Shown here one piece after another: positions 14,477-61,270 of a DNA stretch of 64,000 bases. The notes below the pieces were generated by a model. It saw nothing but the letters and a program-made list of their open reading frames with translations, ran no database searches and was not told the DNA's origin. Positions within the stretch are counted from its first letter, which is position 1; the number at the start of each line of letters is the position of its first letter. Source of the stretch: a virus (taxonomy: Duplodnaviria > Caudoviricetes); IMG/VR virus record IMGVR_UViG_3300011008_000016, positions 96,001-160,000 of that record, one strand, 5' to 3'. Position numbers and translations under genes: made by a program.

Positions 14477-15646
14477 ATGAGTGATCTTAATCAGGTAAGG
14501 ATTCAGGTCCTTGACGCAGAAACAGGTACAGTCATCGATAACGTTGATGTGAAGACATCTGACGGTGCTGTCTATCTTCCTGACGGAAGTACCCTTCGTA
14601 GCTGGATTGCCCAGAATGAAGAGGCGTTTTCCGAGTTTCAGCAGAAGGTAACTGCGCACCTTGCAAAGCAGCACGTTGATCCGGCTAAGGTCGATTCCCT
14701 GTTCACGGGTCTGGCTTATAACGGAAATACGGGCGTATTTACAATTACTAAGCACAACGGCGAAACCGAGGAGATTGACACCCTTCTGGAGAAGGTGACG
14801 GTCAACTTTACTCTGGTTGATGGAACCTATGATGCTGTTTCCAATCCGACTGGTGATCCGAGTGCTCAGGACTACTTCGAGGAGAGTGCTGGCTCTTACG
14901 TGGCAACCGAGGATACCGAGGTTCAGGCTGGTAAGACCTACTATGTTGACAATACTGCTCGCGAGTATCTTGCTCTGACGGCTCAGGATGGCACGGTTCA
15001 GAAGCTGGATGTCACGAAGCTGGTTGATGTCTACAAGGGCAGCAATGCAAACGGCATTACCGTTGCGGTTGCGGCTGACAAGACTATCTCTGCTTCTATC
15101 AATGACGATTCTATCAGCTATACGAAGCTTGATGCTGAACTGAAGGCTAAGGTTGATGCTGAGTACAGCCTGCCTGCGGCTACTACGAGTGAGCTTGGTG
15201 GCGTTATCGTTGGTAACGGTCTGGCTGTTGCGAACGATGGAACTATCTCTGCAAACAACATTACTTACGGCGGAAATGCGGTTTCTATGGCTCTGTCTGA
15301 GACTGAGAATACGGTTGTTACTTCTGTTTCCGGTCCTGCTGATGCTGTTGTTACCACGACTGTTGACACGGCGGTTGCTCCTCTGGTTGTTTCCGCTACG
15401 TTCAGCGGAGCTCAGTCTGCGAATGCTTCTGCTACCTATCAGTGGTATAAGAAGACCATCGGCACTGATGTTGCGTTCAGCGCTATTTCTGGTGCTACTG
15501 GTGCAACTCTGGCTGCGGCTAACATCGACGTTACTACCGAGGGAAGCACGATTTACTACTGCGTAGTTGGTGCTACCGGCACTGATGTCGTTGCTGATCC
15601 TGTAACTTCTAAGAGGGTTACGGTTGTTGTAAACGCAGCGGCTTAA
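14477..15646 (+). CDS. Head fibre/decoration protein with C-terminal Ig-like domain
   Basis: LPAATTSELGGVIVG fibre repeat; TYQWYK...ISGATGATL...YYCVV Ig-like pattern; strongly biased codons. Confidence 0.75.
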   Translation: MSDLNQVRIQVLDAETGTVIDNVDVKTSDGAVYLPDGSTLRSWIAQNEEAFSEFQQKVTAHLAKQHVDPAKVDSLFTGLAYNGNTGVFTITKHNGETEEIDTLLEKVTVNFTLVDGTYDAVSNPTGDPSAQDYFEESAGSYVATEDTEVQAGKTYYVDNTAREYLALTAQDGTVQKLDVTKLVDVYKGSNANGITVAVAADKTISASINDDSISYTKLDAELKAKVDAEYSLPAATTSELGGVIVGNGLAVANDGTISANNITYGGNAVSMALSETENTVVTSVSGPADAVVTTTVDTAVAPLVVSATFSGAQSANASATYQWYKKTIGTDVAFSAISGATGATLAAANIDVTTEGSTIYYCVVGATGTDVVADPVTSKRVTVVVNAAA

Positions 15647-51665: not shown

Positions 51666-52178
51666 TCAATAACTCTTGTTACCCATCATGGATGAATCCA
51701 GACCGATGTGACCTTTACTCCGGCCTTTCTTTCCGCCGTTGTTCTTGTTTCCACCTGCAAGCTTATCCACCATATTGTTATAATAATCGGACACCGTAGA
51801 CAGCTCCCCAATCGCATTGAAAGCACTCTCGATATTTGCCTTGTCCTCATCGGTGAGACTCGCCAGCATCTTAATCTGATGCAACATTGAATTGAACATG
51901 TAGATGCCAGAGTTCAGCTCTTCCGGCTGGAACGATTCCGACTCGAAGATTGCCCCGCATCTGGTGCAGTATGCCGTAGACTCAGAGTATTTATCCTTAT
52001 TCTGGATGAAGCCGTTAAAAGAGTGAATATTAATCACTTTGCCACGACCATTCCCCGGCTTATGATCGCATTTGCGGATAAACCTCTCCCTCGTCTGCAT
52101 TGCCTGATTCTGGAGATTCCGGTACTCCTGTTCAAAGTTCTGGTCATCATTGTGGTTGTTTCTTGTCATTTGAGACAT
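51666..52178 (-). CDS. Hypothetical Zn-binding early protein with G/N/K-rich tail
   Basis: CDH...CTRC; early motif at 52356-52363; SD AAAGGAGG. Confidence 0.75.
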   Translation of the reverse strand: MSQMTRNNHNDDQNFEQEYRNLQNQAMQTRERFIRKCDHKPGNGRGKVINIHSFNGFIQNKDKYSESTAYCTRCGAIFESESFQPEELNSGIYMFNSMLHQIKMLASLTDEDKANIESAFNAIGELSTVSDYYNNMVDKLAGGNKNNGGKKGRSKGHIGLDSSMMGNKSY

Positions 52179-52213
52179 AAACTTGTACCTCCTTTAAAAA
52201 GATTTCGATAAGT

Positions 52214-52241
52214 GTTTAGTTGTTTCCGGAAACAACTAAAC
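52214..52241. repeat. Perfect 28-bp palindrome in a structured leader
   Basis: GTTTAGTTGTTTCC-GGAAACAACTAAAC. Confidence 0.85.
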
Positions 52242-52400
52242 CAGATTAAATAAGTATGGCATCAAACTTATCAATCTGATTTACTTCTCTGTATATCAAA
52301 TATTGTAAATCTATAAGTTTCAACGCTTCTACTTATCCTCTCCAGTTCAACCGTTTAATATAGCTTTAAAATGACTATTAATTATTTTGGTTCCCTGGAT

Positions 52401-55075: not shown

Positions 55076-55873
55076 TTACCGTTCAATGATGATATGTTCG
55101 GTAACCTCCTGTGCATAGTCATTGATATCCTTTACAGATGGACTGTGCAAAACTCCGTCCTTCCAATACGTGATTCCAGAAAGAATCTTTGCAGCCTTTT
55201 CAATGTTGTCATCCCGATAAATCTTATTATACCGGTCCTGCCCTGCCTGCACAATTACCATCAAGAATGTTTTGATGAAACTATGCGTAATGAGCTGCGA
55301 CCTGAACTCACTACTAACCAGCATATTCTGGTAAGATGTTACTGCTGCCTGATGATCATTGTCGAGCATAGCATCAACGATTTCGCGGTCAAACTTATTG
55401 ACAAAGAAGATAGCCGGTTCGCCAGTATCCAAATCCGTATAATCAACAACTTCCAACTGACGCTGTTTTGCTGTCATTCCAAGATAACGCCGCATAGTTT
55501 CTGCATCCTCATCCGGAAGCCCAAATGCTCTCGTGATATCCTTTGTGTTTAATACGATAGAGCAATTCCCCGGAGTACCATCTTCATTTTGCGGTTCCCT
55601 GATAAACAAAACATAGTTCGTTGCCCCAGAGATGTCATCAAAGTTCAGCTTCATAAGATCAGCAGGAGATGTCACACCGCCTTCTTCTCCCTGAGCAGGT
55701 TGTGCCATTTCATATCCGACAACCATACCTTCCTTAGCAAAATCCTCTAAGGTCTTGCCTTCCTCAAATGTAGCACTGGTAATGTACGCTGTGCCGATTG
55801 TTTTGTCTCCGATTCGAATTCCTTCTCCAACCTGAGAATTCAAAATCTGAATTCCGTTTACAGTAAATTTCAT
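55076..55873 (-). CDS. Hypothetical protein
   Basis: 265 aa, SD AAGGAGG. Confidence 0.75.
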   Translation of the reverse strand: MKFTVNGIQILNSQVGEGIRIGDKTIGTAYITSATFEEGKTLEDFAKEGMVVGYEMAQPAQGEEGGVTSPADLMKLNFDDISGATNYVLFIREPQNEDGTPGNCSIVLNTKDITRAFGLPDEDAETMRRYLGMTAKQRQLEVVDYTDLDTGEPAIFFVNKFDREIVDAMLDNDHQAAVTSYQNMLVSSEFRSQLITHSFIKTFLMVIVQAGQDRYNKIYRDDNIEKAAKILSGITYWKDGVLHSPSVKDINDYAQEVTEHIIIER

Positions 55874-55939
55874 ATTAGTTATCCTCCTTAAAAAAGATTT
55901 TTCGTTGCTTTATTACATGGTTACTAAACCAATAATTAT

Positions 55940-58453: not shown

Positions 58454-59668
58454 ATGGCACAGTTCTCATTAAATAAGATGCAGGGTGTGGCATCAGATGA
58501 GTTTCGTTACTGGTACAAACATCCTGAATCAAGAAAACGACCATGGTTTGAAATCTCCGGACCAGCAGGTTCAGGTAAAACCACTGTCGTAAAACATATA
58601 ATTCGTGAATTAGGACTCAAAGATTCAAATGTTGTATTTATGGCGTTTGTTGGAAAAGCCGCATTAGCATTAAGATTATCTGGAGTTAATGGTAGGACAA
58701 TTCATAGTGTCATTTACCGTATCATTCGACATTATAAACGAGATAAAGATGATAATGTAGTTTACTACAAAGGACAACCTATCATAGAGACTTCATTTGA
58801 AAAAGTAGAAGCTTTACCAAAAGATATTGAACTATTAGTTGTCGATGAGGGTGGTATGGTTGATTCCAATATAGGAGCAGACATATTGTCATTCGGCATA
58901 CCAACGTTGGTATTGGGTGATTTGCATCAATTACCACCTGTATTTGGTACAAGTCTATTCTTACATCAACCAGATGTAATACTAAATGAGATTATGAGAC
59001 AGCACAAAGATAGTGCAATCATATATCTCTCTCAACTTGCAATGCATGGTATTCCTATACCGTATGGTTCTTATAACCATGGAGAATGCAGGGTAATCCG
59101 AAAAGAAGCATTAACAGATGATGATTTAAAGGCATTTGACCTTATCATTTGTAGTACGAATCGAACCAGAGATACAATCAATTGGTATATGAGAAAAAAT
59201 ATCTATGGAATAGATTCAAACTCTATTTCCATTGGAGACAAACTTATTTGTCGTCAGAATTGTTGGGATACTTTATTAAATGACCCAAAGATTGATGTAG
59301 ATATAGCTCTTGTTAATGGTATGATAGGAACAGTTACAAGCGTTGATAGAAATAAAAAAGGAAGTGGTGGTGGACATTTATCCATTGGATTCAAACCAGA
59401 ATTTTCTGATGTTAGTTTTACGGATATACCTATTAATCCAACATACGTGCTCAGTGAATATGACTATCGGAAAACAATAAATCCAAGGTTTTCCCCGGAT
59501 GTTACGTTTGAACTTGGTTATTGTTCAACCTGTCATTTAGCACAAGGTTCTCAATATCCGAATATTCTTATCTATATAGATTCCTCTATGACAGATTCTG
59601 ACTATTCAAGAAAATGGCTATATACAGCGATTACAAGAGCACAAAAAAATCTAACTATAGCAGTTTAA
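58454..59668 (+). CDS. SF1B Dda/RecD-like DNA helicase
   Basis: GPAGSGKTT, TIHS, VVDEGGM, GDLHQLPPV, MRQ, GYCSTCHLAQGSQY, LYTAITRA; start at the ATG after AAAGGAG. Confidence 0.92.
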   Translation: MAQFSLNKMQGVASDEFRYWYKHPESRKRPWFEISGPAGSGKTTVVKHIIRELGLKDSNVVFMAFVGKAALALRLSGVNGRTIHSVIYRIIRHYKRDKDDNVVYYKGQPIIETSFEKVEALPKDIELLVVDEGGMVDSNIGADILSFGIPTLVLGDLHQLPPVFGTSLFLHQPDVILNEIMRQHKDSAIIYLSQLAMHGIPIPYGSYNHGECRVIRKEALTDDDLKAFDLIICSTNRTRDTINWYMRKNIYGIDSNSISIGDKLICRQNCWDTLLNDPKIDVDIALVNGMIGTVTSVDRNKKGSGGGHLSIGFKPEFSDVSFTDIPINPTYVLSEYDYRKTINPRFSPDVTFELGYCSTCHLAQGSQYPNILIYIDSSMTDSDYSRKWLYTAITRAQKNLTIAV

Positions 59669-59688
59669 ATTTGCAGTAACATAAAGAT

Positions 59689-59868
59689 AATTAGTAGGTT
59701 AATGGTAACTTACTGATTCCTTACCCGAGGTAACGGGGACTCTTACTCTTGAGCATGTCCTGTCTGGTTGAATCAGGACATCTTCCTTTTAAAAGATTTC
59801 ATCGATAAAATGACTCAGTTGCACGGATAGAAAGGTGGTTACCGACAGCCACCTTTCTCATTCCGTTT
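59689..59868 (+). ncRNA. Candidate structured small RNA
   Basis: AACA TAAAGA TA at 59678-59689; four hairpins with G-U pairs favouring the + strand; terminator-like 3' stem; no ORF. Confidence 0.5.
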
Positions 59869-59957
59869 ACATACAAAAAATAAATTCTGGGGTAGTGAAC
59901 CATTTATTAGGTTCACTACCCCTTTTGTTTTGTATTAGAAAAACTGCACAACCCCGC

Positions 59958-60290
59958 TTATTTATAAACAATCTCGCTTCTGCCGAACGATATTAGTTGC
60001 TTTACAGTGACATATACATGTCCAGTTGTCTTTGTTAAATCGAAATCACCCTCAAGTCGAAGAGCAATATTCTGATGGCGACCACGAATCTTAGCCTTCA
60101 AATCAAACTTACGAAAAGCTGTGATATTCGTTGTAAAAGCTACATTGTCAGAATCCACATCGGATAAACGGAACTTCATAGAAACAAGATTCCCATATTC
60201 ATATACAGGAATAAATTCCATTTTCATATCGTCCACGATTGCCAGATTGTACTGTAACTCATTAACAGTAAGCATAGTTGTTGTCTTCAT
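59958..60290 (-). CDS. Hypothetical protein
   Basis: 110 aa, SD AAAGGAGG. Confidence 0.7.
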   Translation of the reverse strand: MKTTTMLTVNELQYNLAIVDDMKMEFIPVYEYGNLVSMKFRLSDVDSDNVAFTTNITAFRKFDLKAKIRGRHQNIALRLEGDFDLTKTTGHVYVTVKQLISFGRSEIVYK

Positions 60291-61186: not shown

Positions 61187-61270
61187 AAAAATATGTTATG
61201 TAAAATTTATTTATTTATTAATAAAAAAGAATTCAGTAGAGGATATCTTGTATTCCCTACTGAATTCTTT

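Follow-up and report, generated by a model that had tools for sequence, protein, structure and literature searches.

A probable late-promoter RNA gene of an uncultivated AR9-like jumbo phage and its predicted antisense seed for phage ribosome-binding sites

The locus described here lies within a 64,000-nucleotide (nt) stretch of viral DNA (hereafter the window), which corresponds to bases 96001-160000 of the 244,309-bp IMG/VR virus record IMGVR_UViG_3300011008_000016. It consists of a structured segment just downstream of a helicase gene, predicted to be transcribed as a small RNA (sRNA) with a stretch antisense to ribosome-binding sites (RBSs) of the same phage. Proteins encoded in the window include a split RNA-polymerase beta-like protein, gyrase subunits, a divergent DnaB and a Dda/RecD-like helicase. 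Judged by its proteins, the source is an uncultivated AR9-like jumbo phage, an assignment made because the closest cultured matches of the helicase are those of AR9 and PBS1 (36% amino acid identity). No similarity to cultured phages was found at the DNA level, the match being confined to the helicase protein, one distant homologue of which carries the label of a Lachnospiraceae metagenome-assembled genome. Nearly all genes are borne by the minus strand. The RNA locus occupies a 289-bp gap between the + strand helicase gene and a convergent minus-strand open reading frame (ORF) at 59958-60290, and the following features were delineated at the locus:

58454..59668, + strand: Dda/RecD-like helicase gene (Pfam AAA_30 and UvrD_C_2)
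59678..59689, + strand: putative late promoter AACA-N6-TA of the non-virion RNA polymerase (nvRNAP) type (from sequence, intergenic enrichment, the AR9 consensus and retention in relatives)
59689..59718, + strand: 5'-terminal hairpin of 13 bp with two G-U pairs, beginning at the predicted +1 (from folds and homologues)
59724..59781, + strand: variable middle hairpins at 59724-59737 and ~59755-59781 (from minimum free energy (MFE) and centroid folds)
59776..59804, + strand: C/U-rich anti-RBS box, the putative seed, with the core 59782-59800, CUUCCUUUUAAAAGAUUUC (from conservation, accessibility and antisense matches)
59823..59866, + strand: long GA/CU hairpin, probably the first + strand terminator, with an inner stem at 59829-59858 and an imperfect U-tract after it (from folds and family homology)
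59889..59934, not assigned to one strand: bidirectional intrinsic terminator, stem 59889-59922 plus U-tract 59923-59934, with an A-tract ahead (from sequence; the same in relatives L002, L006, L009 and L012)

The promoter motif, which a preliminary description of this DNA had placed at the head of the RNA, reads AACATAAAGATA (AACA-TAAAGA-TA). It matches the late consensus of phage AR9, AACA-N6-TA/G, in which transcription starts at the last base (A/G) (PMC5312081); by this rule, the predicted transcription start is therefore the A at 59689. A genuine promoter class of this genome is represented here: 26 of the 33 genomic copies of [AC]ACA-N6-TAAT are intergenic, intergenic DNA making up about 10% of the genome, and approximately 20 of the 33 are located 14-90 nt upstream of a Shine-Dalgarno sequence (SD) and ATG in the correct orientation. 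The copy at 59678 belongs to the few orphan late promoters that have no gene downstream, and several of these orphans are directly followed by a hairpin.

As had been described, the sequence behind the promoter encodes an ORF-less structured RNA, with a 13-bp 5' hairpin including two G-U pairs, further stems and a terminator-like 3' stem. The + strand fold is more stable than that of dinucleotide shuffles (z = -3.6; -6.1 in the case of the RNA of relative L056). The predicted length is ~180 nt if the transcript ends at the first long hairpin, or ~245 nt if it ends at the bidirectional terminator, which is common to the RNA unit and the convergent minus-strand gene 59958-60290 and may be the true 3' end. 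With respect to the strand, the numbers of G-U pairs in the MFE folds (34 versus 40) are non-discriminating, and the + strand is modestly more stable (-478 versus -450 kcal/mol in total for 10 RNAs). No + strand ORF of 25 or more codons was found between 59669 and 59834, the only short + strand frame, of ~17 amino acids, not being conserved. The unit is judged to be non-coding because the + strand frames running through the C/U box disagree between homologues, and the minus-strand ORFs across it (2-47 amino acids) are mutually unrelated or absent. Searches of Rfam 15, performed at the gathering threshold over the whole window and by local E-value scans, also for L001 and L002, and taking in the phage C4 and Firmicutes sRNA families, gave no hit at that threshold and only chance-level ones (E ~1) in the local scans, and an ARAGORN scan of the window and the genome detected no transfer RNA (tRNA) or tmRNA. 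The helicase stop codon lies 9 nt before the promoter, and the RNA region would therefore double as the 3' untranslated region (3' UTR) of the helicase messenger RNA.

Homologous loci were gathered from IMG/VR, ENA and Logan assemblies with the helicase as anchor, and the unit was found in at least 11 related lineages besides the window, at helicase identities of 63-83% (L009, 83%; L001, 81%; L010/L011, 75%; L017, 73%; L002, 72%; L012, 71%; and, more distantly, L018 and L019, 65%; L006 and L056, 63%); in L016 the copy is displaced. Metagenome scans with the helicase alignment yielded no relative, and those with an alignment of protein B (see below) a single 1.9-kb contig. Each unit comprises the exact late motif, a 5' hairpin beginning at +1 to +4, zero to three middle hairpins that vary in number and sequence, a C/U box in a mostly unpaired linker, and the long hairpin, whose loop is homologous across the family (GGAAAnCGGnnUCC); a second, bidirectional terminator often follows. 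The late motif is retained 4-20 nt past the helicase stop in 10 homologues and in L056; its exact occurrence within a 30-nt interval in all 10 of 10 homologues and L056 compares with a chance expectation of ~3%. A covariance model built from alignment A4 gave no consensus pairs, this alignment being misaligned, and hairpin-only alignments were used instead. In these the covariation looked for in relatives is apparent at both hairpins: the terminator hairpin shows compensatory double changes at 7 of 10 pairs, and the 5' hairpin, which has a different sequence in each homologue, compensatory changes at 5 of 7 pairs (rough alignment A6). Taken as a whole, the evidence makes it very probable that the element is a genuine RNA gene with a late promoter, conserved among relatives.

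The same slot holds another kind of RNA in one relative. In L013 (70% helicase identity; positions 2730-2960) a late promoter, AACATTAAATTAAT, is followed by a ~105-nt tRNA-like RNA with an acceptor-like stem and a T-arm, then by a tRNA-Lys(UUU) at 2870-2947 and a terminator, the genome of the window itself being without tRNA. Since the tRNA-Lys stands behind the same promoter, the post-helicase slot appears to express RNA genes. In two further relatives, ORF-free and relatively GC-rich stretches lie between the sRNA unit and the DnaB-like gene (L001:4340-4970, ~630 nt; L009:2860-3180, ~320 nt); they have no Rfam match and no counterpart in the window.

The C/U box is the most conserved internal segment of the unit (11 homologues, alignment A4), amid otherwise divergent sequence. 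Its mean unpaired probability is 0.62 in the window, where CCUUUU, as anticipated, is closed into a loop by a weak stem of 5 bp, and ranges from 0.62 to 0.94 in 8 of 10 RNAs, the values of L010 (0.30) and L001 (0.43) being lower. The box reads CUUCCUUUUAAAAGAU in the window, CCUUCCUUUUGAUAAAAGAU in L009, CCCCUUUUGAAAGAU in L001, UCCUCCUGAAAAGAU in L002, UCCUCCUUAAAAAGAU in L006, UCCUCCGUUUUGAAAGAU in L012, UUCCUCCGUUCUUUCUA in L010, CUUCUCCUUAAAU in both L017 and L018, CUUCUCCAAAAC in L019 and GUCUCCUCAAAUUUU in L056, and the part common to all variants is an anti-SD run. The L010/L011 lineage has a divergent box, UUCCUCCGUUCUUUCUAUAUAC, for which an exact-pattern scan of IMG/VR returned no match.

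To rank possible targets, about 250 genes were called in the genome, start codons were refined by SD, and the box was scored against 254 start regions. Three start regions stood out:

52179..52215, - strand: start region of candidate target A (gene 51666-52178, 170 amino acids), CGAAAUCUUUUUAAAGGAGG; rank 1 of 254 by duplex energy and again after correction for accessibility
55874..55905, - strand: start region of candidate target B (gene 55076-55873, 265 amino acids), AAAAAUCUUUUUUAAGGAGGAU; rank 3 of 254 by duplex energy
198009..198752 of the genome, outside the window: gene of candidate target C; 14/14 match to the box, better than that of A or B

A fourth candidate, D, recognized in relatives, is a protein of 721 amino acids; the gene of its orthologue in this genome begins at genome position 206887. 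No match indicating a function for A, B or C was found in Pfam, PHROGs, the ESM Atlas or by tblastn against phages, and D matches only PHROG 18873, a family of unknown function.

The box is antisense to the sequence AAUCUUU-n-AAGGAGG present in A, B and C. Segment 59782-59800 is the reverse complement of the A leader save for one mismatch and one G-U pair, and the B leader matches as well, so that the complementarity ascribed earlier to the genes starting at 52178 and 55873 is present. Among the ~250 start regions, ATCTTT immediately precedes AGGAG in A, B and C only, and the heptamer ATCTTTT is found directly ahead of the SD in three, as well as in the box. Genome-wide ranking of the start regions placed A, C and B first, second and third by RNAduplex energy; the ranks were C 1, A 2 and B 4 by ungapped pairing, and A 1, C 2 and B 5 by a seed-restricted score with opening energies, which replaced a whole-sRNA duplexfold calculation that had produced long, loop-filled artefactual duplexes. 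The leader of the gene at 14477, put forward in the preliminary description as a looser target, ranks 56 of 254 and is unconvincing. Similarity between box and targets is limited to the SD and its surroundings, 14-25 nt in all. When the box is shuffled by mononucleotides, 6% of trials equal the best observed energy. Another part of the RNA (59746-59762, + strand, CUCUUGAGCAUGUCCUG) could form a duplex containing one bulge with the initiation codon and following codons AUGUCUCAA (Met-Ser-Gln) common to A and C; this pairing is seen in this genome only and may be due to chance.

The comparison was extended to relatives by scoring the box of each against its own start regions, with orthology assigned by blastp. 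This genome is designated G000; G001 is the L001 phage (229 kb), G002 the L002 phage (220 kb), G003 a 32-kb fragment of the L006 phage, and G004 the L056 phage (235 kb, complete with terminal repeats). By duplex energy the ranks were D 1, A 3, C 10 and B 15 of 218 in G001 (D 1, A 2, B 3 and C 4 by ungapped pairing); C 1, A 22 and B 28 of 207 in G002, with A at 5 after correction for accessibility; B 1 and A 4 of 38 in G003; and D 1, A 6, B 27 and C 131 of 226 in G004. Combining the duplex ranks of A in the four non-discovery genomes by Fisher's method gives p ~0.002, the ranks being not fully independent, as the RNA and the start regions are inherited together. The complementarity of the seed may exceed background: the candidate targets occupy the top three of 254 positions in this genome and their orthologues are enriched at the top in four other genomes, but the single-genome shuffle controls are weak.

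Changes in the box are accompanied by changes in the start regions. In G001, AUCUUUC of the A, B and C start regions stands opposite a G of the RNA, and in G000 AUCUUUU stands opposite an A. Most can be learned from G004, whose box is different: here the match to the RNA falls downstream of the SD, at GAGGAGACUUAUC, and the 11-mer GAGGAGACTTA, whose complement is borne by the RNA, occurs in only 2 of 226 start regions, those of A and D. In one lineage the predicted pairing site has shifted from upstream to downstream of the SD with the targets unchanged. In swap tests the cognate RNA was the best partner in ~6-7 of 11 comparisons, about three being expected. Meanwhile, an extended SD, GGAGGAGAC, is present in 13 of the 226 start regions of G004 (L058-L069) and absent from G000 and G001, and the sRNA box of G004 has changed in parallel, to GUCUCCUC. 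Pairing of the helicase 3' UTR with the start region of the helicase itself was considered as well and rejected, the ranks being 219/254, 157/218, 72/207 and 12/38.

Regarding the time at which the candidate targets are expressed, TATATTAA is enriched in intergenic DNA (33 of 50 copies). The extended motif TTTA-TATATTAA-N6-G is conserved upstream of A (four genomes) and C (three) in all genomes examined, and matches the AR9 early consensus AAATATATATTAT-(6N)-G (PMC5312081). B has an internal early-type copy ~200 nt upstream in two genomes, and no promoter is found close to D. A scheme with a late RNA and early target messengers would thus fit A and C, because conserved early-type promoters precede those two. 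Gene A has a leader of ~190 nt (window 52207-52400, - strand) behind its conserved early-type promoter, and the A start region is immediately preceded by a hairpin with a loop, UUCCGGAA, that four phages have kept.

The mechanism best supported by these data, to which we would give about an even chance, is that of a trans-acting anti-RBS sRNA repressing a small phage regulon. The late, non-virion RNA polymerase of the phage would start the RNA at 59689 from the AACA-N6-TA promoter, and the transcript, its base-paired 5' end probably shielding it from 5'-dependent decay, would stop at one of the two intrinsic terminators. The mostly unpaired C/U box would then pair with the SD and 8-12 flanking nt of a few phage messengers, namely A in every genome tested, D in some, and B and C in the closest relatives. 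Such pairing would occlude the RBS and lower translation after the onset of late transcription, adding a post-transcriptional early-to-late switch to the two-polymerase programme. Action in trans, as originally proposed, is supported by the conserved ORF-less unit, its accessible seed and the cognate-RNA matches that recur at orthologues, including one genome with a changed pairing sequence. The promoter class, the conserved architecture, the non-coding nature, the conservation and accessibility of the seed and the recurring complementarity emerge from sequence analysis; transcription, pairing in the cell and repression as its outcome are what we infer from them. A more general statement, offered tentatively and with somewhat less confidence than the mechanism itself, is that AR9-like jumbo phages of uncultivated hosts, probably gut Firmicutes, rely on a dedicated sRNA transcribed by the late polymerase to turn off translation in a small conserved regulon, with messengers of the early polymerase among its members (A everywhere, plus D, B and C), the seed and the target start regions co-evolving.

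A number of observations weigh against repression in trans. The existence of the transcript, its strand and the places where it begins and ends are predictions, and the U-tract of the first hairpin is poor in several homologues, e.g. L006. Box shuffles in which the core is kept fixed equal the best observed value in 38% of trials by energy and in 8% by ungapped score, and the third-best score in 6.5-11%; overall, the single-genome shuffle controls are weak (p ~0.07-0.4). The A/U-rich flanks of the box pair readily with A/U-rich leaders. Given these controls, low complexity is a real concern, of which the preliminary description had warned. The matches in G002 and G003 are for the most part to the widespread SD of 10-11 nt, B and C do not qualify as targets in every genome (ranks 27 and 131 of 226 in G004), and the cognate specificity in the swap tests is only modest. 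The element is absent from L014 and L015, where a bare terminator of 57-62 nt takes its place. In addition, where the complement of the box resembles an SD (window 59773-59800, - strand, and homologous positions), an ATG comes 0-9 nt later in 7 of 10 homologues, which would not be expected of an element working purely on the + strand.

Several of these points are also compatible with a real RNA of generic or host-directed action, which would pair with many host or phage SDs or mimic the 3' end of 16S ribosomal RNA to titrate a factor, A-D being merely the best of many matches. The frequency with which core-fixed shuffles give similar energies and the plain SD matches of G002 and G003 are what it would predict, as is the conserved core of distant homologues, which is essentially the anti-SD alone (CUUCUCCUU, UCCUCCU, GUCUCCUC). 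However, the flanks of the box change together with those of the same orthologous start regions (AUCUUUU versus AUCUUUC in G000 and G001; GACUUAUC in G004, where the 11-mer is in A and D only), and this argues against a generic SD binder because such a binder would not need it. We regard this explanation as unlikely, though the likeliest of the alternatives.

The box may also be read on the opposite strand, as a copy of an RNA or DNA operator (AAUCUUUnAAGGAGG) that the A, B and C start regions would have in common and that a phage protein such as a translational repressor would recognize; the copy would serve as a decoy, or else be the remnant or start of a minus-strand mini-gene. On the strand bearing most genes the box is indeed a complete SD, the nearby ATG in 7 of 10 homologues would be in keeping with a gene start, and the concerted motif change at four G001 sites would likewise be expected of a shared protein-binding site. 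Nonetheless, no ORF is conserved (Met-Ser-stop in the window, none in L006, L009 and L018, unrelated peptides elsewhere), the upstream sequence of the minus strand shows no early or late promoter motif, a terminator for that strand lies ahead of the box, and the promoter, 5' hairpin and terminator are laid out for the + strand in every homologue. The earlier caveat that the segment is a decayed minus-strand gene start is thereby weakened, not eliminated, and the minus-strand explanation as a whole appears quite unlikely. The ATGs near the box complement, which open unrelated ORFs of 2-47 codons, are more frequent than expected.

A further possibility is that the region has no function in trans and constitutes a structured 3' UTR with a tandem terminator of the helicase messenger, the promoter-like motif being idle or giving an unstable by-product. 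The unit starts 4-20 nt past the helicase stop with no terminator between them, and the helicase messenger must therefore run through it; L014 and L015, moreover, manage with the bare terminator. Against this, the exact late motif is kept in all 10 homologues and L056, the seed is conserved amid divergent sequence, the slot and its promoter drive a tRNA-Lys in L013, and the start region of the helicase is a poor partner of the box (rank 219 of 254). An untranslated region devoid of action in trans is accordingly rated as likewise quite unlikely. In a type I toxin-antitoxin-like module, the + strand RNA would be the antisense regulator of a small peptide encoded opposite it on the minus strand. 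Several homologues do have short ORFs with an SD there, and that of L019 is hydrophobic, but the peptides are unrelated, the ORF of the window has 2 codons, three homologues have none and no minus-strand promoter was found, so this explanation can practically be set aside.

If the RNA acts as an anti-RBS regulator, its closest counterparts in architecture would be the Firmicutes sRNAs with C/U-rich seeds, such as RNAIII and RsaE of Staphylococcus aureus and RoxS of Bacillus subtilis, which repress by RBS occlusion. They are likewise 100-250 nt long, with a 5' hairpin, unpaired C/U motifs for SD pairing and an intrinsic terminator. Those RNAs, however, are chromosomal and made by the host polymerase, and their UCCC-type motifs often occur in multiple copies, whereas the RNA described here is phage-encoded, is predicted to be read from a late promoter of AR9 type, and has a single extended seed that follows the sequences flanking the SD in particular phage genes; the Rfam searches revealed no sequence or structure match to them. 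In enterobacteria, 3'-UTR sRNAs of the MicL/DapZ type are Hfq-dependent and are made by the host polymerase. They resemble the present unit in having the sRNA promoter at the end of an upstream coding gene and a terminator in common with that gene, but here the promoter is situated just past the stop codon and is of the phage-polymerase type.

By analogy, the closest phage precedent of the proposed mechanism would be c4 antisense RNA of the immunity region of phages P1 and P7, exposed short sequences of which block translation at the ribosome-binding region of a phage messenger (PMC12197685). Both are phage-encoded small RNAs pairing, in our case putatively, with the RBS of a messenger to which they are not directly cis-antisense. 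Unlike the RNA described here, c4 is processed from the leader of the operon that it controls and serves lysogenic immunity in temperate enterobacterial phages; the present RNA has its own predicted late promoter and terminator, belongs to a jumbo phage of virulent type, appears to exert temporal control, lacks an Rfam family match, and has predicted targets scattered up to ~50 kb away. In giant phages 201phi2-1 and phiKZ, sRNAs have been mapped by ONT-cappable-seq, with no targets or functions proposed (PMC11512511). These are also short promoter-to-terminator units, some of them intergenic and conserved in position among relatives, but they belong to Pseudomonas chimalliviruses with the late promoter TATG and are mostly products of premature termination in 5' UTRs, whereas for the present RNA a target set can be predicted and recurs across genomes. 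In AR9 itself, seven late promoters drive antisense transcription (PMC5312081). The promoter class, AACA-N6-TA/G, is the same; the AR9 transcripts, however, are cis-antisense over genes, whereas the unit at 59678 overlaps no gene and would act in trans via a seed of 14-20 nt.

Current accounts of temporal control in jumbo phages of the AR9 and phiKZ type invoke two phage RNA polymerases and the promoters that these recognize, and leave the shut-off of early proteins after messenger synthesis unaccounted for. If repression in trans holds true, it would represent RNA-based early-to-late switching in a lytic giant phage and the first sRNA regulon of a lytic jumbo phage definable by comparative genomics, as well as a model for how phage sRNA regulons can be recognized with metagenomes as the sole source. 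The seed is defined, the target start regions number two to four, and the natural variants of seed and targets in at least five genomes constitute ready-made compensatory mutants. Should the RNA prove not to be expressed, the locus would still represent a promoter joined to a terminator and conserved as such, at a site where one relative has a tRNA gene.

Some features of the locus recur elsewhere in the genome. The motif UUUUUGUAU (on the other strand ATACAAAAA), found for instance at window 59870-59888, forms the tail of terminator hairpins and is enriched in intergenic DNA, and bidirectional terminators are the rule between the convergent genes of this phage. Late promoters that likewise lack a downstream gene, each followed by a 5' hairpin and a terminator, occur at genome positions 85234 (- strand), 175330 (+ strand) and 73071 (- strand) and at window position 61197 (- strand); the unit at 85234 has a C/U box as well, CUUUCCCCUUUCGUUUC, which looks unpaired. 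The presence of these orphan promoters suggests that the phage makes several late small RNAs of like design.

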